Below are positions 5,222 through 35,349 of a stretch of DNA of 64,000 bases, piece after piece; position 1 is the first letter of the stretch; every line of letters begins with the position of its first letter. This stretch comes from Candidatus Kerfeldbacteria bacterium (GTDB taxonomy: Bacteria; Patescibacteriota; Patescibacteriia; UBA9570; XYC2-FULL-38-9). The notes under the pieces are model-generated. The model had not been told where the DNA came from. It searched no databases and worked only from the letters and a program-made list of their open reading frames with translations. Location of the stretch: positions 10,920 through 74,919 of the forward strand of contig JACPGJ010000003.1 of assembly GCA_016182555.1 (NCBI GenBank), read 5' to 3'. A program made the translations under genes and the position numbers.

Positions 5222-6463
5222 ATGCTCGAATCTGCAATACAGGTAAACAAGCTTTCTAAGGAATTTCGTATACCACATGAGCGCATTACCACCATGCGTG
5301 GTTTTTTTGTCAATATATTTAAGAAGAAACGGTATGAAGATTTTTTAGCGTTGGACAATGTTAGTTTTTCAGTACAAAAAGGAGAGTTCTTTGGAATTAT
5401 TGGAAAAAATGGTTCTGGGAAATCAACGTTATTAAAAATTTTAGCGGGTATTTATAGAGCAGATACCGGAAAGATAAAAATGAATGGTCGGATCTCTCCA
5501 TTTTTGGAATTAGGTATTGGTTTTAATCCAGAATTATCTGGCCGACAGAATATTTATTTAAATGGCGCAGTGTTAGGCATGACCAAGCAACAGATTGATA
5601 AAAAATTTGATGATATCGTCACGTTCTCTGAATTAGAAAGATTTATCGATCAGAAATTGAAAAATTATTCTTCGGGTATGCAAGTGCGATTAGCATTTTC
5701 CGTGGCTATCCATGCGAATCGAGATATTTTACTTATGGATGAAGTATTAGCGGTCGGGGACGCGAATTTTCAGCAAAAATGTTTAGGTGTATTTCGTCAC
5801 CTTCAACGACAAGGCAAAACGATTATTTTTGTTTCTCATGATATGGAAACCATGAAACAATTTGCCGACCGAGTATTAGTGCTACACCGCGGAAAGGTTG
5901 TGACCATCAGCGCTCCTGAACGTGCAGGATATGAATATAGTCAAATTTTAATGCGTGAACATAGCGCAATTCATCAAACAGCCATTGAGCGTGAAGCTCC
6001 TGATACCGTAGACCCTACACCACCAAAACAACAGAAGAAAAAAAATCGTATTGTTGGTATACAATTATTGAATCAACATGATACAGAAACGCAGGTCTTT
6101 GAGTATGGTGATGATATACGTATTCGTATAGAGTTCGATGTACAAGAACTCGTTCCAGAAATGTATGTCGGTCTTGGCATTATTGATAAGCAAACAGATG
6201 CATGGATTTGTGGAAATAATACCTATTTTGATCGATTTAATCACCACTGGAAAGTAGGGAAAAATACCGTGGTATTGAAGTTGCCAAATACCATATTTCA
6301 CAAAGGCGATTTTTATATATTGAGCAGTTTTTTTATTGGAGACCCAAAAGAGAATGCCATGATGGATTTTTATGACAGCCGTGAGCATAATTTTTATTTT
6401 CGTAGTTTTCCTCGAGATCGTCGCAATGGGTTGGTGTTAATGGATCATGAATGGAAACAATAA
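5222..6463 (+). CDS. Polysaccharide/teichoic-acid export ABC transporter ATP-binding protein (Wzt/TagH-like) with a C-terminal extension domain
   Basis: Walker A GIIGKNGSGKST, ABC signature YSSGMQVRLAF and Walker B ILLMDEVLAVGD are all present. A C-terminal extension of about 150 aa beyond the NBD resembles the Wzt substrate-binding extension. The ORF-track start 5213 is a TTG; ATG at 5222. Confidence 0.8.
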   Translation: MLESAIQVNKLSKEFRIPHERITTMRGFFVNIFKKKRYEDFLALDNVSFSVQKGEFFGIIGKNGSGKSTLLKILAGIYRADTGKIKMNGRISPFLELGIGFNPELSGRQNIYLNGAVLGMTKQQIDKKFDDIVTFSELERFIDQKLKNYSSGMQVRLAFSVAIHANRDILLMDEVLAVGDANFQQKCLGVFRHLQRQGKTIIFVSHDMETMKQFADRVLVLHRGKVVTISAPERAGYEYSQILMREHSAIHQTAIEREAPDTVDPTPPKQQKKKNRIVGIQLLNQHDTETQVFEYGDDIRIRIEFDVQELVPEMYVGLGIIDKQTDAWICGNNTYFDRFNHHWKVGKNTVVLKLPNTIFHKGDFYILSSFFIGDPKENAMMDFYDSREHNFYFRSFPRDRRNGLVLMDHEWKQ

Positions 6464-7854
6464 CGTCTATGCAAACATCTATTTTTTTAATCACTTTTTG
6501 TAATCAAGATTTGTACACTCCCGTAGAAACAAATTTGTTATTACTCGATATAGAGCGGGGAACGCAGCAGTGGATTATTACTGGTAATCAATCTGGTTTA
6601 ACGGGTGTTGGTGTACATGATGAATATGTATTCGTTTTGCATCAAGGCTCACGGCCGGGTATTTTAGTTCTTGCGAAAAAAAATTTCACGGTTATTGCCA
6701 AGACGTTCTTATCAGAGTTGGTGGACCCACATTCATTGGTGGTGCAGGGGAATACGCTCTTTGTCGTTTCTACAGGAACGGATAGTGTTTTAGAATATCA
6801 ATTTGACCCTATACAACGAACTATTCAATATGTACGCGTGCTCTGGAAACCCGAACAGTCGTTAGGAACACAAGATCAATACCATATCAATTCTATTGTC
6901 AAACACCAGAATGATTTATATATTTCCGCATTTGGTCCAAAAGCGGGTGAAACTTGGAAAACGGCATTGCATGGTTTTGTCTATAACGTGACTGCACAGG
7001 ACCCACTAGATGGCTATACAGATATTTATCATCCGCATTCGTTGGTAATGGATGGACAAGATCTCTATTTTTGTGAATCTACTGCACGTGAGGTAAGAAA
7101 AAATAATGAAACAGTAATCACTTTGCCGAATGGATATGTGCGTGGATTAACAGTTACGAATGATGTGATTTTGGTGGGAACGAGCCAAGGTCGCAAAGTG
7201 TCTAAGAGTACTGGGCAAGTGAATAATTTTTTTGAACAAGAAGGAGAGATTGATGCTGTATGCGGTGTGTCTGTTTTTGATAAAAAAACACTTGAGCAAA
7301 TTCATGAGTATAATTTTTTTCCATTACACCGTGAAATTTATGAAATTGTACCTATAGAATCAATACGAGAAACAGCGTCGCTGGTGTATTTCGGTGTGCA
7401 AAATGTGGTTGATGATGTTGTCCAATTTAAACACGCCATAGAACAGAAGCAGCATACTATTGAAGAGCGAGACGCATCGCTGAATACGTTGCGACATGCT
7501 CAAGAAAAAAACGAAATTGTATTAGCGGAACGTACGCAAGAATTGCATCAAGCCCATGCGAAGATTCAACAAAAAGATCAAGAGATGAATCAGCTACAGC
7601 AGATGGTCAATATTGCTCAGCAACACACGGAGCAATTACAGGAACGAGTTGAAGAACAGAAAGATGTCATCGTTGAACAGAAAGAGACAATCACTGAACA
7701 GAAACAGTTAGTGAATACACTCAAAGAAAATGTTCAACAAGCTTATGCAGTTATCCATGATAAAGATCGTGAATTATTGAGTATGCAGGAGTCGAAATTT
7801 TGGAAATTACGCGGAGCGTACATGCAATTTAAACAGTTTATTTTGAGAAAATAA
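6451..7854 (+). CDS. Hypothetical protein: N-terminal globular domain plus C-terminal Q/E/K-rich coiled coil of about 130 aa
   Basis: 467 aa. Overlaps the upstream gene by 13 nt. The C-terminal third is low-complexity heptad-like (QELHQAHAKIQQKDQEMNQLQQMVNIAQQHTEQLQERVEEQKDVIVEQKETITEQKQLV). Confidence 0.55.
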   Translation: METITSMQTSIFLITFCNQDLYTPVETNLLLLDIERGTQQWIITGNQSGLTGVGVHDEYVFVLHQGSRPGILVLAKKNFTVIAKTFLSELVDPHSLVVQGNTLFVVSTGTDSVLEYQFDPIQRTIQYVRVLWKPEQSLGTQDQYHINSIVKHQNDLYISAFGPKAGETWKTALHGFVYNVTAQDPLDGYTDIYHPHSLVMDGQDLYFCESTAREVRKNNETVITLPNGYVRGLTVTNDVILVGTSQGRKVSKSTGQVNNFFEQEGEIDAVCGVSVFDKKTLEQIHEYNFFPLHREIYEIVPIESIRETASLVYFGVQNVVDDVVQFKHAIEQKQHTIEERDASLNTLRHAQEKNEIVLAERTQELHQAHAKIQQKDQEMNQLQQMVNIAQQHTEQLQERVEEQKDVIVEQKETITEQKQLVNTLKENVQQAYAVIHDKDRELLSMQESKFWKLRGAYMQFKQFILRK

Positions 7855-7864
7855 ACCGAGTGGT

Positions 7865-9214
7865 ATGAACAAAACCGTCTCTATTGTTACACTCAATTAT
7901 AATGGCAAACAGTATTTGCAACCACTGTTTGAAAGCTTGCAAAAACAAACATACCAACCTTGTGAAATAGTCATGGTAGATAATGCTTCAGTTGATGGGT
8001 CTGTGGAGTTTGTTGAGCAACGGTTTCCGAATGTGCGTATTATTCGCAATAGCGAGAATGTTGGTTTTGCCGGTGGGAATAATAGCGCGCTGCGGCATTG
8101 TCGCGGTGAATATATTGCGCTCATAAACAATGACATGATTGCCGATGAACGCTACATTGAATGGTTAGTACGGTCGTTAGAAGAACAGCAAGCAGATGTT
8201 ACCGGCGGCAAAATTTTGTTTTATACACCGTTTGTGACATTGCGTGTAGAGGTGAAGACATTTGTGCCGAATGAACATAACGGTGGGGGAGATGTACGCG
8301 CGTTGGGCTGTATGATTGCTTCAGATATTGCTATTGATGATGTACCATATAAAAAGAACATATTTTTGGCCAATACGTTTGGCGAAGAAAAAGCTGGTGA
8401 ACTCGCATTTCATTGGTTGAGTAATGAGGCAGTGATTAAAATTCCAGTAGACTTGAAATTGTCGCGGCATCGGCTGCGTATGAAACTGGCGGTTAGCGAT
8501 ATGCAAAAAGAAGAGGAAGTCACTATGCGTTTGGGCGAGGAGGTTATTTTTCAAAAGCGTGTATCAAATCAGTTCAGCGAATGTACTGTGGATATTGATC
8601 CAGCGCTGATCAAAAAATATGTCTGCCATGTGGTGAATAATGCATCATCTGAATTCAATACGCATTCTGGTGGTGGCCGTGATGTTGGTATTTATGAAGA
8701 CGATAAGGGTCAGTATGATACGCCGCATACCGCGCAAGCTATTTGTGGAGGGAGTATGTTGATTCGTCGTGAGGTCATTGATCGTTATGGATTATTTGAT
8801 GATTATTTTTTTGCCTATTACGAAGATACCGATTTTTCTTGGCGTTTGAATCGTGCGGGCAAAAAATTATTTTTTGAGCCACGAGCGTTTGTCTATCATG
8901 TGCATACAGGAACTTCTAAAGAATGGTCTCCGTTTTTTCGATACCACGTAGAACGAAATCGTTTAGCCATGCTATTGAAAAATGCACGGTTATTCGATGC
9001 TGCACGTGAGTGGGGTGGTTTTTTTCTGAAAACAGCTCGTGATGCGTGGCGCATGGTTCGCCGTCGCGTGTTCAAACGTCAACCAAAAACTGAAGCAGAT
9101 AGTGTCGTGTGGATTCATTTGCGGGTTTGTGGTGATTTGCTGCTGCATATTCCGGCATTACTCTGGAAACGTCTCTATTTCGTTATTGCTCTTGAGCAAC
9201 ACGATTCAGTATGA
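7865..9214 (+). CDS. Glycosyltransferase family 2 (rhamnosyl/hexosyltransferase-like)
   Basis: N-terminal SIVTLNYNGKQYL...EIVMVDNASVDGS and the DxD region NNDMIAD give a GT-A fold. A long C-terminal extension follows. Confidence 0.8.
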   Translation: MNKTVSIVTLNYNGKQYLQPLFESLQKQTYQPCEIVMVDNASVDGSVEFVEQRFPNVRIIRNSENVGFAGGNNSALRHCRGEYIALINNDMIADERYIEWLVRSLEEQQADVTGGKILFYTPFVTLRVEVKTFVPNEHNGGGDVRALGCMIASDIAIDDVPYKKNIFLANTFGEEKAGELAFHWLSNEAVIKIPVDLKLSRHRLRMKLAVSDMQKEEEVTMRLGEEVIFQKRVSNQFSECTVDIDPALIKKYVCHVVNNASSEFNTHSGGGRDVGIYEDDKGQYDTPHTAQAICGGSMLIRREVIDRYGLFDDYFFAYYEDTDFSWRLNRAGKKLFFEPRAFVYHVHTGTSKEWSPFFRYHVERNRLAMLLKNARLFDAAREWGGFFLKTARDAWRMVRRRVFKRQPKTEADSVVWIHLRVCGDLLLHIPALLWKRLYFVIALEQHDSV

Positions 9215-10785
9215 AAATCTGTATTTATAATACCTATTTGAATACCATGGGCGGTGGGGAAAAGCACATGGGTGCTCTGGCTGAATATCTCACTCAGTTT
9301 TCCGATATAGAAGTAGATATTTTAACTCACGCACAGGCTAATCTGCTGGAGTTATCCAAAAAATTGCGTATAGATTTATCGCGATGTCGGTTAATTGTAC
9401 AACATGATATTCAGCAAGACATCGAAACTTATAGTGCGCAATACGATCTTTTTATTAATACAACACACTATAGTAAATTGAAACCACGGGCCAAGAAGAA
9501 TGCGTTATTGTTGTTTTTCCCTATACTGCCGGAACTCAGATTTTTAGCAACATCACAACGGTTTAATCGATTATTACACCGGTTCGATGCAACAGAATCG
9601 ATTCGTTTGCTCACTGGGTTTTACCATCAAGAAAAAATTGGTGCATATTTTTCACGACGGTTTGGCCAATGGACACAAAAAACATTTTCATTTCAATTAC
9701 GCGCATATCAAGTAGGGCGACAACAACAGATAAAGATCAATACATTACCACTGCGTTCAGGCCGATCGTTGAGCACCCTCATTGATCACATTCGTTGTCA
9801 TGGTGAGTTGGTACCATTTCGTATTCGCAAAAATACCATTTTGTTAACGTTGACACCATCAACTGCTGAATCCATTATTACAGTGAAGCTCCGTTCAGAC
9901 TTTCAACCATCGAGTAGCGATACTCGGCGTTTAGGTATTTTTATCACCAGTATCCGTTCCGTTTTTCCTTTCACCGCGCTGCGGCATTGGTCTATGCAAC
10001 AATTGGCACGAATTTTGAAACCGTTGCGATATTACAACTACCTTGATGCTTATGATTTCATTATGGTGAATTCAGAATATACTCAACGGTGGTTAAAAAA
10101 ATTATGGAATGCCGATTCATCTATTGTGTATCCGGTGATTGATACCGAAGTATTTTATGCTCCCTCGGCACCGAAAAAAAAGATGATTATTAGCGTTGGG
10201 CGTTTTTTTGAAGGAAGCCATAACAAAAAACATCTAGCGATGATTCGAACATTTAAAAAAATGTATTTAGCAGGTGACATTCCCGATTGGGAATATCATT
10301 TGTGTGGTGGTACTCACCCGGAGCCAGTGCACCAAGCCTATTTACGCCGTATCCAAAATGAAGCTATTGGGTATCCTATTTTTGTTCACCCAGACATTCC
10401 ATTTCAAGAATTGCGTAAACGGTATCCACAAGCGTTGATTTTTTGGCATGCGTCTGGTTTTGAAGAAAATGAGCAACGTCACCCAGACCGTTTTGAACAT
10501 TTTGGCATTACCACGGTTGAAGCCATGACTGCTGGTTGTATTCCTGTAGTCATTGGAAAAGCGGGGCAATTAGAAATTGTTACACACGGGAAGAATGGAT
10601 TTTTATGGCAAACCATGGATGAATGTATGCAGTATACCAAACGCGTGATGCAAATGCCTTCATCAGAACAGCAGCGTATGTCTGAGAGAGCTCGAGAACG
10701 TGGTACGCAATTTTCTCGAAAACATTGTGAGCAGCAACTCGCAACCGCGTTTGAACCCGTGTTGACTGAATTGCGAAAATCATGA
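9211..10785 (+). CDS. Glycosyltransferase family 4 (GT-B, retaining) with a long N-terminal domain
   Basis: The C-terminal EX7E motif region RFEHFGITTVEAMTAGCIPVV...GKNGFLW is typical of GT4. Overlaps neighbours by 4 nt. Confidence 0.75.
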   Translation: MKICIYNTYLNTMGGGEKHMGALAEYLTQFSDIEVDILTHAQANLLELSKKLRIDLSRCRLIVQHDIQQDIETYSAQYDLFINTTHYSKLKPRAKKNALLLFFPILPELRFLATSQRFNRLLHRFDATESIRLLTGFYHQEKIGAYFSRRFGQWTQKTFSFQLRAYQVGRQQQIKINTLPLRSGRSLSTLIDHIRCHGELVPFRIRKNTILLTLTPSTAESIITVKLRSDFQPSSSDTRRLGIFITSIRSVFPFTALRHWSMQQLARILKPLRYYNYLDAYDFIMVNSEYTQRWLKKLWNADSSIVYPVIDTEVFYAPSAPKKKMIISVGRFFEGSHNKKHLAMIRTFKKMYLAGDIPDWEYHLCGGTHPEPVHQAYLRRIQNEAIGYPIFVHPDIPFQELRKRYPQALIFWHASGFEENEQRHPDRFEHFGITTVEAMTAGCIPVVIGKAGQLEIVTHGKNGFLWQTMDECMQYTKRVMQMPSSEQQRMSERARERGTQFSRKHCEQQLATAFEPVLTELRKS

Positions 10786-12302
10786 ATGGGCTTTATCGAT
10801 TCTATCGAAATCATATTAAGCGCTATATTCCGCGTCGTGTATTGAATGTCATATTGAGTGTATTCGGTGTGCATGGTTTTGCCAACGAGCAGAAGCATAT
10901 CGATCAGTCATTTGTGGTACGACAGCCATATGCATCATGCTTACGGGTGCGGAAATTTTTTTCTACGCGTAGACTCGCTCGTCAATTGCTCACTCGCGTT
11001 ACACTGATGCCAAACATATTTGTATTGATTGATGATGGAAAATTGACGTATCAAGCATTGATGCAAAAAATGGAAAACATGCATTCGGATTATGTATTGC
11101 TGGTGAATCCGAGTGATCATTTTTTTTCTGATACATTGCTGCAATATACAGCGGCAGTGTGCGAGAATCCAGATGCAAAAATAGTCTATGGTGATTATGT
11201 GGTACGTTCTGCTGGGCGTATGACTGCCGTATATTTGCCACATTTTTCTCCGTATTATTTCCAGCAGATTCGGTATATTCCGCATACAGCCCTTATTCAT
11301 ATTTCGGTGATTCGCGCTTGTCAGCGCCTTCCTCAAGCGAATGAAGAGTTTATGACAGAAGCCATTGCCCAGTGCCAAACGAAAGACGTGCTACACATAC
11401 CCGCATTCCTCACGAGCATTTCCCCAGCAGCTTATCAGTTACTGAATGCCGTACGGCCTGTGGTATACACGCTACAGTCGAACGCATTAGTCTCTATTAT
11501 TATTCCAACCAAAGATCATCCAGAATTATTACGTGCCTGTATCGAAAGCATTGCACGTTACACCAAGCAACGATATGAAATACTGATTGTGAATAATCAA
11601 TCAGAGCGCCCGGAAATGTTGAAATATTTGGCTGAATTACGAACGCAGCATACAGTGATTGATTATTCGCAACCATTTGATTATGCAGCAATGAATAATC
11701 TGGCGGCGTCACAGGCGAATGGAGCATATCTATTGTTGCTCAATGATGATATTGTGGCAACAGATGATGGTTGGCTAGAGCAAATGGTGGCGCTTGGCTC
11801 GCAGTCGAAGGTTGGAGTGGTTGGCGCTAAATTAGTATATCCCAATGGCGCTATTCAACATGCCGGATTGTGTTTGACGAGTATCAATAATGGAGTGACG
11901 TATTACTGGCATAAATATTTACGCTCTCGCCGAAAGGATGGTTCGCTTGAACCAGGATATCTTTCTTCAGTAGTGGCCGTGCGTGAAGTTGCAGCGGTAA
12001 CAGGGGCTTGTTTATTGATAAAAAAGCAACTGTTTGATGAGTTGAATGGCTTTGATTCGGAGTTGCATATTGGCTATAATGATGTCGATTTGTGTTTACG
12101 AGCACGAGAACTTGGTTATAGTGTGTTATATACGCCCTATGCAGAATTGATTCACCATGAATCGATGACTCGGAAGGCGAGTGCTCAGGTATCCATGATG
12201 CAACACCCAGAAGACAGTGCACGGTTTATTCACAAATGGAGGCATGTTCTTGAAAAAGGAGATCCGTATGTTAATTCAAAACTGAGCATTAAACAATTCT
12301 AA
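10782..12302 (+). CDS. Glycosyltransferase family 2 (two-domain)
   Basis: The C-terminal half contains VSIIIPTKDHPELLRACIESI...ILIVNNQS...LLLNDDIV and GFDSELHIGYNDVDLCLRARELGYSV (GT2). The N-terminal half is a degenerate GT-like domain. Confidence 0.75.
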   Translation: MNGLYRFYRNHIKRYIPRRVLNVILSVFGVHGFANEQKHIDQSFVVRQPYASCLRVRKFFSTRRLARQLLTRVTLMPNIFVLIDDGKLTYQALMQKMENMHSDYVLLVNPSDHFFSDTLLQYTAAVCENPDAKIVYGDYVVRSAGRMTAVYLPHFSPYYFQQIRYIPHTALIHISVIRACQRLPQANEEFMTEAIAQCQTKDVLHIPAFLTSISPAAYQLLNAVRPVVYTLQSNALVSIIIPTKDHPELLRACIESIARYTKQRYEILIVNNQSERPEMLKYLAELRTQHTVIDYSQPFDYAAMNNLAASQANGAYLLLLNDDIVATDDGWLEQMVALGSQSKVGVVGAKLVYPNGAIQHAGLCLTSINNGVTYYWHKYLRSRRKDGSLEPGYLSSVVAVREVAAVTGACLLIKKQLFDELNGFDSELHIGYNDVDLCLRARELGYSVLYTPYAELIHHESMTRKASAQVSMMQHPEDSARFIHKWRHVLEKGDPYVNSKLSIKQF

Positions 12303-12311
12303 ATCTCACTT

Positions 12312-12388: not shown

Positions 12389-12392
12389 AAGT

Positions 12393-18927: not shown

Positions 18928-18930
18928 CCT

Positions 18931-23457: not shown

Positions 23458-23458
23458 C

Positions 23459-25402: not shown

Positions 25403-25483
25403 GTTAAATAGCTTATCGTTTTTCTTGCATCTATTGAAGGTTTCCGATAGTATATCTGTATTCAATAATAGATGAATATTCAT

Positions 25484-26422
25484 ATGAAAATACTTGTCAC
25501 TGGCGGCGCAGGGTTTATTGGGTCGCATATCGTGGATGCGTTGGTTCAAGCTGGGCACCAGGTAAGTGTGCTGGATAATTTTAGTACCGGCAAACGGGAA
25601 TGGGTGAATGATGCTGCCGTGGTGCATGAAGCCGATATTACAGATGCAGCGCGGGTGAAAGAGGTTATTGCCGTGGCATGCCCAGAAATTATTTACCATT
25701 TTGCCGCACAGATTGATGTACGGAAATCGGTCTCTGATCCGGTGGTGGATGCACAGCAGAATATTATTGGTACACTAAATGTTTGTGAAGCGGCGCGTAC
25801 GGCGCTTCCAGTTGGCACGCCGCGAAAAATTATTTTTGCGGCAACGGGTGGTATGATGTATGGTGATACCGATATTCGTCCGACACCAGAACAGGTGGAA
25901 CCACGTCCGATTTCACCATATGCTATTTCAAAGTTATCGGTAGAAAAATATTTGTATTATTACAAAATGGTATACGGTATTGATTATGTTTCTTTGCGAT
26001 TTGCGAATGTCTATGGTCCGCGTCAGAATCCGCATGGAGAAGCGGGTGTGGTGGCCATATTTATTAACAAAATGATGCGTGGTGAACAACCGATTATTAA
26101 CGGCGATGGTACGCAAACACGTGATTACGTATTTGTGCATGATGCGGTAGATGCAGCAATGCGTGCGATGAACACTCAGACTCTATCCGGATATTATAAT
26201 GTGAGTACCGGTATCGAAACCGATGTGAATAGTATTTTTGATCTGATCAATGCCGCGTTTGATAAAAAATTTACTGCGCAGCATGGTGAAGCCAAAGCTG
26301 GCGAACAACGAACGAGTGCACTCGATTATTCAAAAATTTCACAAGAAACTGGTTGGAAACCACGAGCCGTGCTTGCAGAAGGGGTGATCCAAACGGTGAA
26401 GTGGTTTTGTGAACAAATATAG
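25484..26422 (+). CDS. NAD-dependent nucleotide-sugar 4-epimerase (GalE-like; possibly UDP-xylose or UDP-glucose 4-epimerase)
   Basis: [36 protein letters not shown]; YxxxK present (YAISKLSVE). 313 aa. Confidence 0.75.
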   Translation: MKILVTGGAGFIGSHIVDALVQAGHQVSVLDNFSTGKREWVNDAAVVHEADITDAARVKEVIAVACPEIIYHFAAQIDVRKSVSDPVVDAQQNIIGTLNVCEAARTALPVGTPRKIIFAATGGMMYGDTDIRPTPEQVEPRPISPYAISKLSVEKYLYYYKMVYGIDYVSLRFANVYGPRQNPHGEAGVVAIFINKMMRGEQPIINGDGTQTRDYVFVHDAVDAAMRAMNTQTLSGYYNVSTGIETDVNSIFDLINAAFDKKFTAQHGEAKAGEQRTSALDYSKISQETGWKPRAVLAEGVIQTVKWFCEQI

Positions 26423-27953: not shown

Positions 27954-28997
27954 TTAGAAGAATTTTTTGGCTAGGCCAAGAATACCTTGTTTCCATGGCA
28001 CACGGTGGGAAACGCCAGATTTTCCTTCAAATTCTTTTTGATGGTCAATGTACCATTGCAAATTTCGAAGGAGCGCATCTTTGTTTGAATATTTTGGTAC
28101 GTACCCCAGAATGCGTTCTGCTTTTTCAATAGAAACAAACGAATCTTCACAAGCAGTTTCATACACCCATTTATATAATGGAGAGAGGTGAAAAAATTCC
28201 AGTACTCGTAAAGCCCAAATCATGGGTGCCGCAGGAAAGCCAATAATTTTTTTTCCAAACCCAGCTTTGTCTAACACGACTTGATAATCTTCTTTCATGG
28301 TAGTGAATTCCTTTGCACCAATATTGAATGTATCGTTCACTATGCTGGTTTCTTTTGTCGCACATAAGTAAATCGCATCACATAAATCTTCCACCGCAAG
28401 TAATTGATAGCGATTATGACCACTCCCGATCATGGGAAAATTTCGGCCATCCAACGCCCAATCATACAACAACGCAAAGACGCCTAAACGCTCCGGCCCA
28501 ATAAAAGATTTTGGACGAATAATGGGTACAACCATGCCATCTTTACGTGCCTGAACACAAGCTTCTTCAGCAAGAATTTTTGCTTCTCCATACGGGCCAA
28601 CGCCAACAAGCTTATCGGTTTCAAATAACGGATGATGATCTGGGATACCGTACACTGCCGTAGATGAAATATGCACGACCCGTTTTACACCGTGTTTTTT
28701 TGCCGATTCCAAAATAATGCGTGTACCCTCTACGTCAGTAGAATAAATTTCTTCTTTGGAATACAATGGGAGTGCAGCGGCGCAATGAACAACAATATCC
28801 ACTCCTTCCATTATTTTGTCTACCGTGTCTTTATGGCGAATATCACCAATGACCGACTGGATACGATCTTTTTCCGGATAATCAAATTCGAGCAAATCAA
28901 GAGAGCGAACGGTGTGCCCGTTTTCCAAAAGAAAGCGAATCAGATTAATCCCTAGAAATCCTGATCCGCCGGTAATGAGGTAGGTCTGTGATGCCAT
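27954..28997 (-). CDS. NAD-dependent epimerase/dehydratase (extended SDR, 3-beta-HSD-like)
   Basis: YLITGGSGFLGINLIRFLLENGHTV (Rossmann). Catalytic YGEAKILAE (YxxxK). 347 aa. Confidence 0.7.
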   Translation of the reverse strand: MASQTYLITGGSGFLGINLIRFLLENGHTVRSLDLLEFDYPEKDRIQSVIGDIRHKDTVDKIMEGVDIVVHCAAALPLYSKEEIYSTDVEGTRIILESAKKHGVKRVVHISSTAVYGIPDHHPLFETDKLVGVGPYGEAKILAEEACVQARKDGMVVPIIRPKSFIGPERLGVFALLYDWALDGRNFPMIGSGHNRYQLLAVEDLCDAIYLCATKETSIVNDTFNIGAKEFTTMKEDYQVVLDKAGFGKKIIGFPAAPMIWALRVLEFFHLSPLYKWVYETACEDSFVSIEKAERILGYVPKYSNKDALLRNLQWYIDHQKEFEGKSGVSHRVPWKQGILGLAKKFF

Positions 28998-29005
28998 AGA
29001 AAAAA

Positions 29006-29362
29006 TTATGATTTAGGTAATGAAATAAGAATAATGCCCGATAATAATAGCAATATTCCGCTGAGCTGTACACCGCTCAGTGTCTCTTTGAGATAGAATG
29101 TGGAAAAGAGAGTAATAATCAAAAAACCCCCACCGACCATCAGCGGATATGCGAGGGAGAGTGGTAATTTGGAGAGCGCTACGGAATAAAAAATCACATT
29201 CAGGGCGAAGAGTATCAGCCCAAGGATAAGTACGTAATTTTTCATCACGGCTTCGATCATTCCGACTTCTTTAAAATAATGCAAATTTTTAGAACCAACC
29301 TTGAGTGAAATGTTTGCGACGGCGTTGAGCGTGAGTGCAGTCACAAGATAAGCATATCCCAT
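29006..29362 (-). CDS. Small 4-TM DMT/SMR-family protein, ArnE/ArnF-like putative lipid-linked-sugar flippase subunit
   Basis: 118 aa with four hydrophobic helices. The size and topology match ArnE/ArnF/EamA-like small transporters. Located between the HAD and SDR genes. Confidence 0.5.
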   Translation of the reverse strand: MGYAYLVTALTLNAVANISLKVGSKNLHYFKEVGMIEAVMKNYVLILGLILFALNVIFYSVALSKLPLSLAYPLMVGGGFLIITLFSTFYLKETLSGVQLSGILLLLSGIILISLPKS

Positions 29363-29367
29363 AATAT

Positions 29368-29844
29368 TTATAGATAATGATTGAATAGTCTGAACATAAC
29401 ATCATCAACCGCATTGATTATTTTAATAATCGGGCGATCTTTTCCATGCTTCCTTTTCACTCGAATAAATTGGGCGCCTATACGCTTTGCAAATAGGGCA
29501 TCGGTCAAAAATTTATCGCCAATAACGGTGACCGGCTGTTGCGAAAACTCGGTGGGAAGGCATTGCAGCACACGACGACTGGGTTTTTTACAATCTGGGT
29601 TGATGATTGATGTTTTTGTAATCCGTTCTATTTCTTTGCAGCGAGGTCGATTCCGTGAATTTGTACATAAATAGACAGTATTATGTTCTTTCAGTTCTTC
29701 CAATTTTTTTAATGCGGGCAGTGTGACCAATACCGCATTGTCTGGAACCAATGTTCCGTCAATATCCAACAAAATAACTGAATCACGCAATGACTGCACA
29801 TTCAGCTCTTCAAAATAGTATTCAGCCATAGAGGTAAAATACAC
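29368..29844 (-). CDS. HAD-IIIA-type phosphatase (YqeG-like)
   Basis: Motif I ILLDIDGTLVPD (DxDGT), motif II VYLCTNS, motif IV VIGDKFLTDALFAKRIG (GDxxxTD). 158 aa. Overlaps the UbiA gene by 23 nt. Confidence 0.6.
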   Translation of the reverse strand: MYFTSMAEYYFEELNVQSLRDSVILLDIDGTLVPDNAVLVTLPALKKLEELKEHNTVYLCTNSRNRPRCKEIERITKTSIINPDCKKPSRRVLQCLPTEFSQQPVTVIGDKFLTDALFAKRIGAQFIRVKRKHGKDRPIIKIINAVDDVMFRLFNHYL

Positions 29845-30724
29845 CAGTCATCCACACCATCCAGGTGAGCACCGTACAGAGCAACCACCGATCATGAAAT
29901 AACATTTTTTCTGGTGCTTCCCCCTGTTCAAACTGATGAATAATATACAAATATCGAAACATGCCAAAAAAGACAAAAAATGAGGAGTAGATCATATACG
30001 GTTTATCTACCTCTACTGTGTATAAACTGTAACTGAGAATAACGCCGGTAATAACGACCGTGAGAATATGATCCAAGAATGAATCAGTATATTTGTTGAG
30101 AACAACGCGTGTCTGGTGTTCACTGCCAGCAACTGCTTTAAATTCAGCGCGTCGTTTCCCAATAATGAGAAATAATGCCAGAAAAAAAGTGACCAAAATG
30201 AGCCACGGAGAGATATAAATATTTAGCAGTTCTCCACCGGCTTTGACACGCAGTAAATACATAAATGCGACAAAGAAAATTTCAATGACTGGAATGTGTT
30301 TTAGAAAGAAGGAATAACTGATATTCATGCAGAAATACAGAAAGAGAATAATATCCACTCGTGCATTTAATTGGGTAGCGAGTGCAATAACAATGAGTAA
30401 CAACAAGAACGCAATCCACTGACCTTGGCGAATACTTATTTGCCCGGCAGCAATGGGACGAAACTTTTTTTTCGGATGATGTCGGTCTTTTTCATAATCC
30501 GCAATATCGTTAATGATATAAATACTGCTGGCCAAAAATGAAAATGCAAAAAATAATAGTGCCGTGTGATAGACATTCTGCACACTAAAAAATTCAACGG
30601 CAAAAAATAATGGTGCAAAGATTAACAGATTTTTAATCCAATGATTGGCACGCATTTCTTTTACGATAGCGTGCGTGGTTGATTGACGTGGTTGCATAGG
30701 TGATAAATGTCTCGAAGGTATCAT
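29822..30724 (-). CDS. UbiA-family prenyl-phosphate transferase with the decaprenyl-phosphate 5-phosphoribosyltransferase (DPPR synthase, Rv3806c-type) signature
   Basis: WIKNLLIFAPLFFA ... YIINDIADYEKDRHHPKKKFRPIAAGQIS. This is the NDxxDxxxD motif plus the K(K/R)FRPIA(A/S)G block characteristic of DPPR synthases. 8–9 TM helices. Confidence 0.65.
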   Translation of the reverse strand: MIPSRHLSPMQPRQSTTHAIVKEMRANHWIKNLLIFAPLFFAVEFFSVQNVYHTALLFFAFSFLASSIYIINDIADYEKDRHHPKKKFRPIAAGQISIRQGQWIAFLLLLIVIALATQLNARVDIILFLYFCMNISYSFFLKHIPVIEIFFVAFMYLLRVKAGGELLNIYISPWLILVTFFLALFLIIGKRRAEFKAVAGSEHQTRVVLNKYTDSFLDHILTVVITGVILSYSLYTVEVDKPYMIYSSFFVFFGMFRYLYIIHQFEQGEAPEKMLFHDRWLLCTVLTWMVWMTGVFYLYG

Positions 30725-30741
30725 AACTGTGTGTCCGGGTA

Positions 30742-31887
30742 TTAGTCAAGCATACGTTGGTACATTTTTTTATATTCGTCAGCTGCTTGTTGCCAAGAAT
30801 ACAAAAGGCTTTTTATACGGCTTGCGCTCGCGTATGTTTGCCGTAGTTTTGCGTCACGTAATAATTGGGTGAGTGCAGCGGTGAGTTGCGTTTGATTATT
30901 TTTTTCAATAATGATGCCGTTTCCGCTGGCGAGTGCTTCCGCGTCGCCAGTATTCGTGATAATCAATGGCAATCCAGATGCCATCGCTTCCAATACCGTG
31001 TTCGACATACCTTCATTATGAGACGGTAGAACAAAAATATCCGCCTGGCGATAGATTTCTGGTAATTCGCTGCGTTCCATATTGCCGTGAAAGTGTACAC
31101 GTTTGCTCAACTGTAACGCTTGTGTCAGTGCCTCAAGTTCCACTCTAATATTTCCATCACCAACTATTTCTAATTCCGTTTGTGGAAATGAAGATTGTAT
31201 TTCAGCGAATGATTTTATCAGTATATCAATTCCCTTTCTTTCTATTAGACGTGAAACACACAGAATGCGTACTTTTTTTTTATTTTCTTCGGCCGTAGAG
31301 GCCGAAAATGGATAGAATATTTCCGTGTCTACACCATTGGGAATAACGGGTATTTCTAATGATGCCATCGACTTATGCGCTAAATCAGCTAAACTTTGGC
31401 TATTGGCCACAACATCTGTTGCCTTTTTCCAAATATCGACAAACAATGGCTTCGCAATAGTATAAATAAATTGAAACCGTTTATTATATCCGGGCACATC
31501 GGAGCCGCGTAGAGAGATAATATATGGTAACTGACGGCGGAAACTATACGCAATAATTCCTGCTGGTACGGTAAAAAAGGCATGAACGAAATCGTATGTA
31601 TTTTTTCGCACCAGGCTGCGTGCCATTAAATACCCCTGCAACAGATAACGGAATAAGTTTAATTGTGACTGATAATGCAACGAATCACGTTTATCTCCAA
31701 TCGGTACACGGTACAGGGTCACATTCGGAAATGGTTGCTCTGTTGAATATCGATTGTCGATTGCTGCGGTGATGCAATCAATTGTTATGCGTTCTTCATT
31801 GCGGAATTGGCGGAATAATTCTTGTGTTGCGTATCCAGCGCCACCACCCAACGGTGGGTATTCTGAATTGAGAAAGAGAACACGCAT
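30742..31887 (-). CDS. Glycosyltransferase family 4
   Basis: MRVLFLNSEYPPLGGGAGYA at the N-terminus. EX7E region SHNEGMSNTVLEAMASGLPLIITNTGD. Confidence 0.75.
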   Translation of the reverse strand: MRVLFLNSEYPPLGGGAGYATQELFRQFRNEERITIDCITAAIDNRYSTEQPFPNVTLYRVPIGDKRDSLHYQSQLNLFRYLLQGYLMARSLVRKNTYDFVHAFFTVPAGIIAYSFRRQLPYIISLRGSDVPGYNKRFQFIYTIAKPLFVDIWKKATDVVANSQSLADLAHKSMASLEIPVIPNGVDTEIFYPFSASTAEENKKKVRILCVSRLIERKGIDILIKSFAEIQSSFPQTELEIVGDGNIRVELEALTQALQLSKRVHFHGNMERSELPEIYRQADIFVLPSHNEGMSNTVLEAMASGLPLIITNTGDAEALASGNGIIIEKNNQTQLTAALTQLLRDAKLRQTYASASRIKSLLYSWQQAADEYKKMYQRMLD

Positions 31888-31888
31888 G

Positions 31889-32821
31889 TTATTTTTTTAT
31901 GGTGAGAATTTCTTTGATCGCGTAGGGTTTGCGTGGGCCGTCATAGTAAATACGAATCAGAATATCGGCCAACAATCCAAAGATAAAAAATTGAACACCG
32001 AGTATGGTGAGTAATACGGCCAAGAGGGGGATATTTGAATCTGCTAAGCCGTGATGAAAAATAAATTTTTTGATAAACAAAGCAATAAAAAGAAGAATAG
32101 CTCCAACAATCAACCCCAACCCAAGCCCTCCAAACAAGTGCAGCGGTCGGCGGGCATATTTTCGCCAAAACCAAATCGCCAGCATATCGATAAATCCTTT
32201 GTACACGCGCTTCCAGTTATATTTTGTCTTTCCGTGCAAGCGTGGACGGTGCGCAATCGGTGCCTCTGCAATGCTGAATCCGCTCCAGGCCAGTACGGCC
32301 GGGATAAAACGGTGCATCTCACCAAATAAATCCACTTCGTTAAAACATTCTTTTTTGTAGACTTTGAGTGAACATCCTGAATCATGGATATGATCTTTCA
32401 CAAAAATACTCCGCAGGCCATAGGCACCCCGCGATACAAACCGTTTCATGAATGGGTCATGCCGTTCTTGCCGCCAACCGGAGACCACATCTACGCGCTT
32501 CTCTTCCATGACGGTGAGCAATTTTGGAATTTCACTGGGTGGATTTTGCCCGTCACCATCGAGTGTAATAATTATTTCACCGCTCGCATGTTTAATTCCA
32601 GCATCCAGTGCGGCGGTTTGTCCAAAGTTTTTTCGTAAACGAATAACGGTCAGCGGGGATAAGGTATTCAACACGCCTGCTGTTCCGTCAACGCTACCGT
32701 CATCCACGACAATCACTTCATAGGGTTGACCAAGATTGTTCATGACGGTGATCACTTCTGCATGCAGCGCAGGAATATTTTTTTCTTCATTAAATACCGG
32801 AATAATAACGGAGTATTTCAT
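31889..32821 (-). CDS. GT2 polyprenyl-phosphate glycosyltransferase (ArnC/GtrB/DPM1-like) with a C-terminal TM anchor
   Basis: YSVIIPVFNEEKNIPALHAEV...VVDDGSVDGT...IITLDGDGQNPPSEIP. C-terminal TM helices (LFGGLGLGLIVGAILLFIALFI..., LLAVLLTILGVQFFIFGLLADI). Confidence 0.8.
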   Translation of the reverse strand: MKYSVIIPVFNEEKNIPALHAEVITVMNNLGQPYEVIVVDDGSVDGTAGVLNTLSPLTVIRLRKNFGQTAALDAGIKHASGEIIITLDGDGQNPPSEIPKLLTVMEEKRVDVVSGWRQERHDPFMKRFVSRGAYGLRSIFVKDHIHDSGCSLKVYKKECFNEVDLFGEMHRFIPAVLAWSGFSIAEAPIAHRPRLHGKTKYNWKRVYKGFIDMLAIWFWRKYARRPLHLFGGLGLGLIVGAILLFIALFIKKFIFHHGLADSNIPLLAVLLTILGVQFFIFGLLADILIRIYYDGPRKPYAIKEILTIKK

Positions 32822-32826
32822 ATTGT

Positions 32827-33798
32827 TTACTTACCATGAAATCGCTCTTCTGTAAACCAGTGCACAAATTTTTTCAAACCCGTTTCAATATCGGTTTTCG
32901 GCCTCCAATTGAGCAAGCGGCTAGCTTTTGAAATATCTGCGTATGTTTTATTCATGTCGCCAGCCGCCGCAGGTAAGTACTCAATTTTGGCTTCTTTGCC
33001 AGTGACACGTTCCAACACCGCAATATATTCTCGCATCGTTAAAGGGTGGGAATTTCCTAGGTTAATAATTTCATATTCTAATTTTTTTCCCACACACGCC
33101 ATCACGCCATCGACAATGTCATCTATATACGTGAAGTCGCGCTCTGCAGAACCATCGCCATACAGTTGAATGGGCTTTCCATAAAGCAAGCTTTCCGTAA
33201 ATTTATACGGAGACATATCTGGTCGGCCACGTTCACCATAGACCGTAAAAAACCGTAATCCAATACAATTCATTTGGTAGAGGTGATGATAGGTGTACGC
33301 AATCAATTCACAGGCACGTTTACTCGCGGCATACGGAGAGATAGGATGATCGACATTCGCTTCTTCTGAAAACGGTGTTTTGTTTTGGTTGCCGTACACG
33401 GAAGAAGACGAAGCAAAAATAATATCGTGTACGCCGAATTCGCGGGCGAGTTCAAATAACAAGTATGTGCCTTCCACATTCACACGTTGTGTCAGAAGCG
33501 GCTGTTCAATGGAAATACGCACACCGGCTTGCGCTGCGAGGTGAATAATTAGGTCAATCGAGTGTTGCTCAAACACCGCACGCATCGCTGCGGCATCTGT
33601 AATATCAGCGCGTACTAACTGATAGACTGCTGTTTCCGCATGTGCCTCAATGTTCGATTCTTTATATTGTGGATTATAATACGCCGAAAAATTGTCTACC
33701 GCAATCACCGTGTGTCCTTCGGCAATTAAGCGATCGGCAACGTGTGAACCAATGAACCCTGCGGCTCCAGTTAAAAGGATATTCATGACCCTCACCAT
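32827..33798 (-). CDS. NAD-dependent nucleotide-sugar epimerase (UDP-glucuronate 4-epimerase-like)
   Basis: ILLTGAAGFIGSHVADRLIAEGHTVIAVDNFSAYYNPQYKESNI is the Cap1J/LpsL-type N-terminus. YxxxK present (YAASKRACE). The ORF-track 5' extension to 33939 is rejected; the start is likely MVRV/MNIL near 33786–33798. Confidence 0.7.
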   Translation of the reverse strand: MVRVMNILLTGAAGFIGSHVADRLIAEGHTVIAVDNFSAYYNPQYKESNIEAHAETAVYQLVRADITDAAAMRAVFEQHSIDLIIHLAAQAGVRISIEQPLLTQRVNVEGTYLLFELAREFGVHDIIFASSSSVYGNQNKTPFSEEANVDHPISPYAASKRACELIAYTYHHLYQMNCIGLRFFTVYGERGRPDMSPYKFTESLLYGKPIQLYGDGSAERDFTYIDDIVDGVMACVGKKLEYEIINLGNSHPLTMREYIAVLERVTGKEAKIEYLPAAAGDMNKTYADISKASRLLNWRPKTDIETGLKKFVHWFTEERFHGK

Positions 33799-33852
33799 AC
33801 AATTTTTTGGCCTACTGGTCAACGAGAGAGTTTTTTCGTATACTGCTTGGGT

Positions 33853-35349
33853 ATGAAGATACGTGTCAACACTATAAAACTCGCCAAAGGAATTATTTTT
33901 TTCATTCCCATCGTGATCAGTGTCTGGATGGCAGTTCAATATTTTGCTGTTTCCGGCAATTTATCTATTGGTACCAATTTTTCCAGTGCATCTCCATTTA
34001 TTTCGGAGTGGTACCCACAAAACCGCGCTGGCGACCGCGAACAAAATTTACGAACAGGCGATACATATCAGCAACTTGTTGGTGAGCCAGATTATATTGA
34101 TGTTGCCGTTCCGCGTTCATACGATAGTGTGGACGTGACAGTTGACTACAACAACGACGAACAACCGTTGATTGAATTTGGTCTCATTACGAACCCCGAA
34201 CCATGGAGTGTGAATTTGCAAGCATTTGAAAGTACCGTCATTGATGAAGCATTGAAAACGTGGGATCGTATCGACACCGACGGCGTGACGCTTTTACAAC
34301 GCACAAAACAATTCAATTCACTAGACGAATTTCGAAATGCCATGCCGTCCGACAAAGGTGTTGGCACCTATCGTTATCAATTGTATCCAACATTTATTGA
34401 TCCGACGTATACACCGAGTGATGCGAGTCTCGATATTGACCGGTACTTTCGTGGTGCTCACGAATTTGTGGCGTATGTCAAAAATGAAACACTTCACATC
34501 ACCTTTGACTTCGCCGATATGAACCGTGAATTTAATGCCGATCCTGTTAAAATAGAAGTGTACGATAAGGGGCAGCTGATTGATGAAAAATTATTATCAG
34601 ATGATGGTGATGTAACGGCGTCAGGCGTGAACACGGCTGTGCGTTCACTCACTGTTGATATTCCAAATCTTGCTGAAGGTGCTTATACGTTGAAAGTGGT
34701 GGTGGATAACGATATGGTCACCACCCATATTCACAGTGATCAAGAAAAATTTGTTGCGCACAATCAGGTCTACATTATCAATAATGAAGAATATCGCATT
34801 CCATTTCCAGAAATGAACCTGGACGGCACGACAGTTGCGACCAATGCAACAGAATTTATTGCGAAAACCGATCATAATACGGGCGTGCAAACGATGACGA
34901 TTGATGATGAGCCGCTCGATATCAATACCGTGCATGAATTTGCTTCTTGGCAAGCAGAAAACGCAACAGCGAATACCAATACTGTTCGTACGGTGGTGAT
35001 GCCGAAAAATGACCTCCTCTTTATTACCCACGGCTACATGGCGTTCACTCAGGATAGTTTTTTTGACCCAGATTATTTGATTCAATCGGTTGATGAAATG
35101 AGCACACTAGACCAGCTCGATCATATTGTTTTTCAAGATTACCATTCGCCAGAAGTGCTTCGCAGAGACAAAACACAAACCGTGCATTTGGATTTAGCAG
35201 GTGTGGCGGGTGACAGAAAAAAACTCACGTTTATTTTATCCGCACCTGGCTTGGATCGAGAACGATATATGATACAAATTAATCATATCCAATTCGATTT
35301 TCAACGCGAGCCGTTATGGCAACGACTCCGCCAACGTTTCCACTTATGA
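33853..35349 (+). CDS. Hypothetical exported/anchored protein
   Basis: The N-terminus is hydrophobic (KGIIFFIPIVISVWMAVQYFAV), followed by a large soluble domain. 499 aa. Divergent from the glycosylation operon. ATG at 33853; the track start 33847 is a TTG. Confidence 0.5.
   Translation: MKIRVNTIKLAKGIIFFIPIVISVWMAVQYFAVSGNLSIGTNFSSASPFISEWYPQNRAGDREQNLRTGDTYQQLVGEPDYIDVAVPRSYDSVDVTVDYNNDEQPLIEFGLITNPEPWSVNLQAFESTVIDEALKTWDRIDTDGVTLLQRTKQFNSLDEFRNAMPSDKGVGTYRYQLYPTFIDPTYTPSDASLDIDRYFRGAHEFVAYVKNETLHITFDFADMNREFNADPVKIEVYDKGQLIDEKLLSDDGDVTASGVNTAVRSLTVDIPNLAEGAYTLKVVVDNDMVTTHIHSDQEKFVAHNQVYIINNEEYRIPFPEMNLDGTTVATNATEFIAKTDHNTGVQTMTIDDEPLDINTVHEFASWQAENATANTNTVRTVVMPKNDLLFITHGYMAFTQDSFFDPDYLIQSVDEMSTLDQLDHIVFQDYHSPEVLRRDKTQTVHLDLAGVAGDRKKLTFILSAPGLDRERYMIQINHIQFDFQREPLWQRLRQRFHL

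Follow-up and report, generated by a model that had tools for sequence, protein, structure and literature searches.

A candidate surface-glycopolymer locus in Candidatus Kerfeldbacteria with polymer-assembly genes and lipid-linked-monosaccharide modules

The stretch of DNA analysed here, hereafter called the window, is 64 kb of a contig from a metagenome-assembled genome (MAG) of Candidatus Kerfeldbacteria, bacteria of the Candidate Phyla Radiation (CPR). It holds a dense set of glycosyltransferase (GT) genes which, taken together, probably form a surface-glycopolymer locus with two layers: a cytoplasmically synthesised polymer that leaves through an ATP-binding cassette (ABC) transporter, and three or four modules that use lipid-linked monosaccharides to modify this polymer outside the membrane. 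The second layer is better supported than the first. In it, single sugars would be loaded on polyprenyl monophosphate, small membrane proteins of the GtrA or small multidrug resistance (SMR) families would flip the loaded donors, and five GT-C enzymes would transfer the sugars outside. Candidates for these sugars are a hexose or xylose, a sugar of the PgfS/ArnC type, a pentofuranose made from phosphoribosyl pyrophosphate (PRPP) and one of uronate type. The overall plan would be that of the rhamnose cell-wall polysaccharide loci of Gram-positive bacteria.

Layout of the locus

We profiled all open reading frames (ORFs) of at least 100 aa in the window against Pfam and NCBIfam, and used Logan contigs to see about 2 kb further upstream and about 0.8 kb further downstream. 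Three proteins encoded in the locus have identical counterparts in NCBI (HYV32_00770, HYV32_00820 and HYV32_00830), which come from an 86-kb contig of a Candidatus Kerfeldbacteria MAG. The ORF list and gene spacing define operons at 5222–12302 (plus strand), from 16222 to 12393 (minus strand) and at 17580–26422 (plus strand), followed by an eight-gene operon running from about 33786 to 26498 on the minus strand. Their junctions are tight, with genes that overlap or lie 0–20 nt apart; scans for promoters and terminators returned nothing above shuffled expectation. Beyond the glycan operons, on the 3′ side, come a 499-aa exported protein, a PfkB kinase and an S-adenosylhomocysteine hydrolase, and then rmlA, rmlC, rmlB and rmlD.

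A pentofuranose-type operon

The minus-strand eight-gene operon includes what we call module C, which would make polyprenyl-phosphate-ribofuranose from PRPP and possibly epimerise it to another pentofuranose. Its first enzyme, a UbiA-family polyprenyl-phosphate 5-phosphoribosyltransferase (29822..30724, minus strand), scores 224.2 bits against NF008978, the NCBIfam family of decaprenyl-phosphate phosphoribosyltransferases, and so exceeds the curated cut-off of 207. The sequence NDIADYEKD at residue 72 fits the NDxxDxxxD motif, which is indispensable to the enzymes from Citrobacter and mycobacteria (PMC11127046). The next gene overlaps the UbiA stop codon by 23 nt and encodes a HAD-IIIA phosphatase, a candidate phosphoribose 5-phosphatase (29368..29844, minus strand; YqeG-type HAD, 52.5 bits; DIDGT motif). 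A first, sequence-only reading of this DNA had picked out the UbiA/HAD pair as similar to decaprenylphosphoryl-5-phosphoribose synthase. The resemblance holds, and the pair is no odd extra; it would make the donor for a fourth module, one of a kind already published (PMC11127046).

The candidate flippase of module C is an SMR-family small transporter (29006..29362, minus strand; Multi_Drug_Res 34.7 bits, cut-off 23.7). It had been described as ArnE/F-like, and indeed matches ArnF at 34 and ArnE at 27 bits, both under the NCBIfam cut-offs. It is followed by an extended short-chain dehydrogenase/reductase (SDR; 27954..28997, minus strand; Epimerase 138 bits, 3Beta_HSD 85 bits) with TGGSGFLG and YGEAK sequences that correspond to the TGxxGxxG and YxxxK motifs. 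This SDR has no close solved or characterised relative in the PDB or NCBIfam, and its candidate role as an epimerase of polyprenyl-phosphate-ribofuranose is modelled on ORF13 of PMC11127046. The last gene of the operon encodes a 472-aa GT-C (26498..27916, minus strand).

Kelly et al. (2024) described extracytoplasmic addition of ribofuranose by a phosphoribosyl-lipid synthase, a HAD phosphatase, a flippase and a GT-C, with an optional SDR epimerase that turns ribofuranose into xylofuranose; in other lineages they noted SMR-type flippase candidates (mycobacteria) and separate phosphatases (PMC11127046). As judged from sequence, the UbiA–HAD–SMR–SDR–GT-C operon matches a split-gene, SMR-type variant of this pentofuranose three-component system. 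Citrobacter youngae O1/O2 has parts of the same kinds: a UbiA-type enzyme with NDxxDxxxD, a flippase, a GT-C, an SDR epimerase able to change the pentose, and a HAD phosphatase, for which the HAD-IIIA protein here is a candidate counterpart (PMC11127046). The phosphatase is an N-terminal fusion in C. youngae, whereas here it is a separate overlapping gene, in an order similar to that of the C-terminal fusion reported in Pseudomonas syringae. The C. youngae flippase belongs to the MATE family; in our locus there is no MatE protein, and an SMR-type candidate, as proposed for mycobacteria, takes its place. Unlike its C. youngae counterpart, the operon also adds an ArnC-like GT2, a GT4 and a uronate-epimerase-like SDR, so that two donor synthases share one GT-C.

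Comparison with the mycobacterial decaprenyl-phosphate-arabinose pathway (Rv3806c, Rv3807c, DprE1/E2, Rv3789, Emb/Aft) gives a similar picture. The first enzyme is homologous above the curated cut-off, and the mycobacterial pathway likewise has a dephosphorylation step, a small flippase candidate and GT-Cs. By contrast, the phosphatase here is of the HAD type and not of the Rv3807c type, and one extended SDR replaces the two-enzyme epimerase. Homologs of DprE1 (FAD_binding_4) and DprE2 are absent from the locus, and arabinofuranose is therefore not predicted.

A PfkB nucleoside/ribokinase-like kinase and the S-adenosylhomocysteine hydrolase lie at 35549–37768, with the glycan operons on one side and rmlA on the other. 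On an unrelated metagenome contig (L014, 5985–7843), a PfkB kinase is directly 5′ of a homolog of the UbiA phosphoribosyltransferase. These neighbourhoods hint at a link to ribose-phosphate supply.

Further donor modules

Three-component systems such as GtrA/GtrB/Gtr, CsbB–GtcA–YfhO, lactococcal CsdAB/CD/EF with CflA, and GacI–L combine a GT2 donor synthase, a GtrA-type protein and a GT-C. The same kinds of parts recur in our locus. Three GT2s have polyprenyl-phosphate-sugar synthases (AglJ, ArnC, PgfS, PpgS) as their best named matches, two of them with C-terminal transmembrane (TM) segments and one without, and the two GtrA proteins and the SMR protein all score above gathering cut-offs. These assignments bear out the sequence-only reading, which had listed three ArnC/GtrB/DPM1-type GT2s, two GtrA proteins, one flavoenzyme, one methyltransferase and four SDRs (all are extended SDRs, and one is a clear UDP-xylose synthase). 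It had also counted two GT4s, as we do, and three other GT2s, where we find only two (7865–9214 and 10782–12302). A single cell can have several GT2/GT-C systems, which can use a common flippase (PMC9574508). The locus differs from the known three-component systems in packing three or four modules and five GT-Cs into 30 kb, in having one short, soluble GT2 without a membrane anchor, in the flavoenzyme inside one module, and in its CPR host, which lacks characterised envelope glycans.

Module A would consist of a UDP-xylose synthase, a short GT2, a GT-C with a carbohydrate-binding-module (CBM)-like domain, and a GtrA protein. The UDP-glucuronate decarboxylase (UDP-xylose synthase, UXS; 15293..16222, minus strand) matches human UXS1 structures at 413 bits (E 8e-123). 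The short GT2 (14532..15272, minus strand; 246 aa; Glycos_transf_2 118.5 bits) is DPM1/AglJ/PpgS-like, with NCBIfam scores of 102 bits for AglJ, 73 for ArnC and 56 for PpgS; it has no membrane segment and is a candidate polyprenyl-phosphate-sugar synthase that would pair with the 712-aa GT-C encoded just 3′ of it. Beside this operon, a GtrA-family protein (16296..16724, plus strand; GtrA_DPMS_TM 99.1 bits), a candidate flippase or synthase activator, faces the convergent gene of an S-adenosylmethionine-dependent methyltransferase (16728..17417, minus strand; Methyltransf_23, _12, _31 and _11).

Three other CPR loci, from a second Kerfeldbacteria MAG (L002), a related CPR locus (L004) and a Moranbacteria contig (L005), carry orthologs of the 712-aa GT-C of module A. 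The short GT2 is 67–78% identical across all three; in L002 and L005 its gene is immediately 5′ of that for the 712-aa-type GT-C, and the two are separated by a PMT_2 gene in L004. In the second Kerfeldbacteria MAG the contiguous order is 671-aa GT-C, GT2, GtrA, flavoenzyme, UXS, short GT2 and 712-aa GT-C, with the UXS ortholog (82%) in the same position; a further GtrA gene, an adjoining methyltransferase gene and a UDP-glucose dehydrogenase gene are nearby. Separately, we noted that the Logan assembly of SRR12113422 breaks at 12349 and 16959, which flank the 712-aa GT-C, the short GT2, UXS, GtrA and part of the methyltransferase gene. The breaks suggest strain-level heterogeneity or a coverage change for the module between them.

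Module B would comprise an ArnC/PgfS-like GT2, a GtrA protein, a flavoenzyme, three GT-Cs and an epimerase. The GT2, of ArnC/PgfS/GtrB type (17580..18530, plus strand), aligns over its full length with PgfS (277 bits) and ArnC (204 bits), below the equivalog cut-offs of NCBIfam, and has one or more C-terminal TM segments (predicted at residues 269–287). The GtrA-family flippase candidate (18514..18927, plus strand) scores 71.1 bits against GtrA_DPMS_TM. The epimerase is a GalE/RmlB-like extended SDR, a nucleotide-sugar epimerase or dehydratase (25472..26422, plus strand; Epimerase 207 bits), with scores of 170 bits for GalE and 176 for dTDP-glucose dehydratase that are both under the NCBIfam cut-off.

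The flavoenzyme of module B (18931..20250, plus strand) is a PRK07233-family FAD oxidoreductase, amine-oxidase/CrtI/PPOX-like (NF005560, 498 bits; cut-off 252). The family is uncharacterised, and the best PDB match reaches only 36 bits. The gene order GT2–GtrA–flavoenzyme is kept in both Kerfeldbacteria. We rejected the enzyme as a DprE1, since it belongs to the amine-oxidase family and not to FAD_binding_4; it is also unsupported as a UDP-galactopyranose mutase, as it has no GLF domain match and no mutase appears among its best 25 NCBIfam matches. Its substrate may be the lipid-linked sugar or the polyprenyl carrier itself, which it would oxidise or change in some other way ahead of flipping. 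In module A, the short GT2 beside UXS and the CBM-bearing GT-C may, as a weakly supported possibility, make polyprenyl-phosphate-xylopyranose. A literature search for a polyprenyl- or dolichyl-phosphate xylose donor made by a GT2 returned nothing relevant, only lipid-linked xylofuranose (undP-Xylf; PMC11127046 and its commentary). We see only a small chance that at least one module carries chemistry new to three-component systems, whether flavoenzyme tailoring or the xylopyranose donor. If true, either reading would mean a donor or tailoring step new to extracytoplasmic glycosylation, and a first handle on CPR envelope glycans.

Module D would contain a UDP-uronate-epimerase-like SDR, an ArnC-like GT2 and a GT4. 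The SDR (32827..33939, minus strand) resembles 4-epimerases of UDP-hexose or UDP-glucuronate, probably the latter (PDB 5u4q 278 bits, 6zl6 189, MoeE5 152); the alignments begin at residue 51–52, and the true start is probably near 33786, about 50 codons inside the ORF. Directly 3′ of it, the 310-aa ArnC-type GT2 (31889..32821, minus strand) aligns over its full length with ArnC (161.7 bits) and PgfS (141 bits) and ends in two TM segments (232–276); on the Moranbacteria contig its ortholog (54%) stands beside two PMT_2 GT-Cs. Comparable known systems are galacturonate modification in Rhizobium (RgtE, LpsL and RgtA–D) and ArnC/ArnT. The likeness of module D to RgtE/LpsL and ArnC lies in a UDP-uronate 4-epimerase-like SDR directly 5′ of an ArnC-like GT2 with two C-terminal helices. 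The differences are that no ArnT-like partner is assigned here, that the host has no lipopolysaccharide, and that the proposed sugar is deduced only from the adjoining SDR. A Leloir GT4 completes the module (30742..31887, minus strand; Glycos_transf_1 135 bits). It may elongate the lipid-linked sugar before flipping, as happens for lactococcal side chains (PMC9574508).

Five GT-C enzymes

The five GT-Cs are all polytopic, with 8–10 hydrophobic segments, and in all five an acidic motif (D or DE/DD) is conserved directly after TM1. Each passes a fold or profile test, so the five earlier GT-C calls stand; the outcome that would have counted against the sequence-only reading, failure of several of them in fold recognition, did not occur. 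Single-sequence PDB searches with four of the candidates gave no matches, and searching the PDB with a profile built on the 712-aa family did not turn up a GT-C either; only structure prediction followed by Foldseek resolved its fold.

The 712-aa protein (12393..14531, minus strand) belongs to a DUF6311/YfhO-like family, whose members carry PF19830 (DUF6311), PF10131 (PTPS_related) and PF09586 (YfhO). Its AlphaFold model, built from a 50-sequence alignment, has a pLDDT of 94.3. The best PDB matches are STT3, DPY19, PglB, EmbA/B, ArnT, ALG12 and AftA, and residues ~540–712 form a C-terminal CBM-like β-sandwich that matches CBM6, CBM27 and ephrin-receptor ligand-binding domains. Residue D43 is invariant in the family. 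The NCBI model of this gene is 658 aa long and starts 54 codons inside the ORF; it would lack both the first TM helix and D43, and we therefore prefer the longer ORF and consider the deposited model probably truncated.

Three GT-Cs follow one another in module B. The 546-aa protein (20247..21887, plus strand) belongs to PMT_2 (40.2 bits, cut-off 26.1) and has about nine TM segments, with a WDE motif after TM1. Its 548-aa paralog (21811..23457, plus strand; 44% identity) scores 26.4 bits against the same cut-off. The divergent 671-aa GT-C (23387..25402, plus strand; the NCBI start corresponds to 23459) was modelled with a pLDDT of 83.4 and matches STT3, AglB, ArnT (TM-score 0.48/0.55), DPY19, EmbC and ALG12; its C-terminal β-rich domain gave weak CBM35/BcsB-type matches only (E 0.03–0.08). 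A word-indexed search with this protein recovered only itself, and an exhaustive search 220 homologs. PMT_2 is present in 26 of the 50 that were aligned, and one homolog is fused to a GtrA domain.

The 472-aa GT-C of module C has homologs that combine PMT_2 with TPR repeats, which swamped the search of the PDB with its family profile. Its N-terminal catalytic region nevertheless aligns with the 712-aa and 671-aa families by hhalign (probabilities 97.7% and 96.9%), and DD43–44 is conserved in the family. For both this protein and the 671-aa GT-C, looking up the gene context of the closest homologs led to short or unrelated contigs.

We propose that the GT-Cs would transfer the flipped sugars outside the membrane and so decorate or extend the polymer. 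The CBM-like C-termini, clear in the 712-aa protein and weak in the 671-aa protein, point to glycan acceptors.

Polymer operon and export

The operon at 5222–12302 begins with a Wzt-type ABC exporter ATPase (5222..6463, plus strand), in which both ABC_tran (80.5 bits) and the C-terminal carbohydrate-binding domain Wzt_C (39.9 bits, cut-off 30.4) are above gathering cut-offs; matches to the NCBIfam TagH and galactan Wzt/RfbE-like families reach 171–189 bits. Overlapping the wzt stop by 13 nt is the gene of a DUF4915/TIGR03032 protein (6451..7854, plus strand; DUF4915 62.6 bits, TIGR03032 53.5 bits and below its cut-off), whose last ~130 residues form a Q/E-rich coiled coil. A literature search for DUF4915/TIGR03032 gave nothing. 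Three large GT genes with overlapping stop and start codons follow. The first is a GT2 and putative cytoplasmic polymer-assembly enzyme (7865..9214, plus strand; Glycos_transf_2 98.7 bits) with a weak partial match to a rhamnosyltransferase subfamily; the second is a GT4 with an N-terminal extension (9211..10785, plus strand; Glycos_transf_1 60.6 bits); and the third is a GT2 (10782..12302, plus strand; Glycos_transf_2 75.5 bits) whose 235-aa N-terminal domain has no Pfam match.

Genes for dTDP-L-rhamnose synthesis, rmlA (long form), rmlC, rmlB and rmlD, are all present at 37787..41255 (plus strand), as identified by NCBIfam and Pfam. In NCBIfam, rmlA_long scores 400.8 (cut-off 320), dTDP-glucose dehydratase 475.5 (365) and rmlD 274.2 (224). 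RmlC is divergent and reaches only 43.6 bits there, yet passes in Pfam.

A Wzt with a carbohydrate-binding domain, a GT2/GT4/GT2 operon and nearby rml genes would together be the signature of a cytoplasmically made, ABC-exported polymer, which probably contains rhamnose. The operon would assemble this polymer on the cytoplasmic face, probably from dTDP-rhamnose, and the ABC transporter would export it, with the Wzt_C domain recognising the finished glycan. Possibly that domain recognises a chain-terminating modification, for which the methyltransferase at 16728–17417 and the DUF4915 coiled-coil protein would be candidates. The sequence-only reading had listed neither the Wzt ATPase nor the DUF4915 protein nor the rml genes. 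Its repeated modules of donor, flippase and GT-C are upheld by homology, fold and operon structure; its restriction of the locus to decoration is not, since the hallmarks of a polymer pathway are present as well and the locus thus does more than decorate.

In the related CPR locus (L004), a GT2/GT4/GT2 block orthologous to ours (37%, 41% and 46% identity in gene order) abuts the ortholog of the 712-aa GT-C. This arrangement ties the GT-C, along with the CBM-like domain it carries, to the product of the block, a polymer. The same locus has, at 128–1420, a Polysacc_synt (Wzx-like) flippase gene instead of Wzt, and the route of export or flipping may differ between relatives.

The streptococcal, lactococcal and enterococcal gac, rgp/scc, cwps and epa loci have the same rmlABCD, GT2/GT4s and ABC ATPase, an off-locus initiator, and side chains added by GT2 and GT-C systems as we propose here (PMC9574508). 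Unlike those loci, ours has no permease beside the ATPase and no LCP ligase or GroP transferase in view; its ATPase carries a Wzt_C domain, as in Gram-negative O-antigen exporters, and the rhamnosyltransferase activity of its GTs is putative.

We searched for the missing permease. No Wzm (ABC2_membrane) is encoded by the ORFs of at least 100 aa in the window or in the short flanks, and the 860-nt gap before wzt (4362–5221) was rejected as the site of a wzm pseudogene, as no remnant was found. This gap contains a GC-rich island of 450 bp at 4500–4950 (54–62% GC, against 32–43% around it), between an RDD gene and wzt, with a 93-aa ORF on the minus strand (4550–4831) that has no Pfam match. The island could be a small foreign insertion where wzm would be expected. 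We also considered the PF00953 protein at 57970–59037 as a WecA-type initiator and rejected it, as it is a true MraY (TIGR00445, 206.6 against a cut-off of 192) and the only PF00953 protein in the window; no initiating transferase of the WecA, TagO or WbaP type for an ABC pathway is encoded there. In comparable Gram-positive rhamnan loci the initiating transferase is normally encoded off-locus (PMC9574508).

Acceptors and alternative readings

Several points tell against a polymer modified by lipid-linked monosaccharides, our preferred reading. Its protein families, folds, operons and conserved gene pairs are shown by sequence, structure models and gene context, and the sugars, the roles of the flippases, the matching of donors to GT-Cs and the acceptor are inferred. 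None of the GTs, the GT2s included, reaches an equivalog cut-off, and the donor sugars are consequently guesses. With no Wzm in the window or its flanks, ABC export is half-documented; nor is there an initiating phosphoglycosyltransferase, an LCP ligase or a UDP-glucose dehydrogenase in view. The adjacency of UXS and the short GT2 is confined to the two Kerfeldbacteria and is seen in neither L004 nor L005. Genome and metagenome scans with UbiA led to three distant loci without the module context and gave no evidence that the pentofuranose operon is conserved elsewhere. Finally, the 472-aa GT-C is only a candidate member of CAZy family GT136, and the SDR at 27954–28997 only a candidate member of the ORF13 family. 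Protein glycosylation or extracellular polymerisation by GT-Cs may instead apply to individual modules.

Might the modules mainly glycosylate proteins, such as type IV pilins, S-layer or PEGA proteins or the 499-aa exported protein? The models would be actinobacterial Ppm1/Pmt O-mannosylation, the Pgf system of Streptococcus mutans and arabinosylation of the Pseudomonas pilin by TfpW. We regard this as possible, if unlikely, for the locus as a whole. Two of the GT-Cs are PMT_2 members, the 472-aa family consists mostly of PMT_2+TPR proteins, some of them named protein O-mannosyltransferase, and the GT2 at 17580–18530 scores highest against PgfS. Moreover, genes for a type IV pilus, two of them encoding large proteins that resemble pilins, are clustered at 49120–57479, and pentofuranosylation of pilins via a UbiA-type synthase has been discussed (PMC11127046). 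However, these pilus genes are some 15–20 kb away, behind housekeeping genes, whereas the glycan operons are joined to a glycan-binding Wzt, polymer-type GTs and rml genes, and the C-terminus of the 712-aa GT-C is clearly, and that of the 671-aa GT-C weakly, CBM-like. The acceptors suggested earlier, the 499-aa protein (33853–35349) and a 365-aa exported protein, find no support: they have no recognisable domain and no tblastn match in L002, L004 or L005. A membrane-anchored PEGA-domain protein (41281–42210, minus strand), convergent with rmlD, is possibly a surface-layer component and an alternative candidate acceptor.

It is rather doubtful that the GT-Cs instead polymerise a homo- or heteropolymer outside the cell from lipid-linked monosaccharides, in the manner of mycobacterial Emb, Aft and Mpt, with a glycolipid or lipoglycan as acceptor. 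In its favour, there are five GT-Cs, including a tandem paralog pair, for four donor synthases, and the UbiA protein is of the decaprenylphosphoryl-5-phosphoribose synthase type. The fold matches include Emb and Aft structures, and it is typical for Emb and AftD that the GT-C bears a CBM (PMC11127046). Yet the top fold matches are STT3, ArnT and DPY19 and not Emb or Aft, DprE1 and DprE2 are missing, the flavoenzyme being of the amine-oxidase family, and the cytoplasmic GT2/GT4 operon with Wzt would already supply a polymer.

That this is an ordinary Wzx/Wzy O-antigen or capsule locus with its flippase, polymerase and initiator just beyond the window is very improbable. In its favour, about 20 kb of the 86-kb NCBI contig lie beyond the stretch scanned, and L004 has its Wzx-like gene some 9 kb away from the ortholog of the 712-aa GT-C. 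Against it, no Wzx, Wzy, ligase or initiating transferase (Polysacc_synt, Wzy_C, Bac_transf) is encoded by the ORFs of at least 100 aa in the window, in line with what the sequence-only reading had stated for its 30 kb, or in the flanks, which hold unrelated genes. The window has no Wzz match either, and its Wzt belongs to an ABC-type exporter.

Every component of a polymer with external monosaccharide modules is of a known kind, with mechanisms established in Gram-positive and Gram-negative bacteria; their arrangement here is a dense combination of them. In our literature searches, no paper dealt with multi-component glycosylation in Patescibacteria. The cell surface of these episymbionts is thought to mediate attachment to the host. 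The locus provides a concrete parts list, with four candidate lipid-linked donors, five transferases acting outside the membrane, the rhamnose pathway and the ATPase of an exporter. It would bring the pentofuranose system into the CPR, in a version with split genes and an SMR-type flippase candidate, and it flags the conserved flavoenzyme and the DUF4915 coiled-coil protein as partners without an assigned role. The value of the analysis lies in cataloguing and in generating hypotheses and not in a new concept.

Surrounding genes

The window opens with restriction–modification genes (30–3321) directly 5′ of the glycan locus: a methylase (N6_Mtase, Eco57I-type) carrying a fused HsdR N-terminal domain and, after it, a specificity-like subunit. 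The ~2 kb upstream view shows GrpB, LexA, a type I restriction system and an RDD protein, with LexA and GrpB beyond the window start; the 0.8 kb downstream holds further cell-division genes. The type IV pilus cluster at 49120–57479 encodes PilM, PilN, PilO, a T2SSF platform protein and a T2SSE ATPase. Its two large pilin-like proteins (201 and 440 aa) have N-terminal methylation motifs, and the 440-aa protein has CarboxypepD_reg and SpaA-like domains; a 470-aa protein encoded beside them has no assignment. A tRNA-Thr (CGU) at 61265–61338 (minus strand) is the only RNA gene detected in the window.

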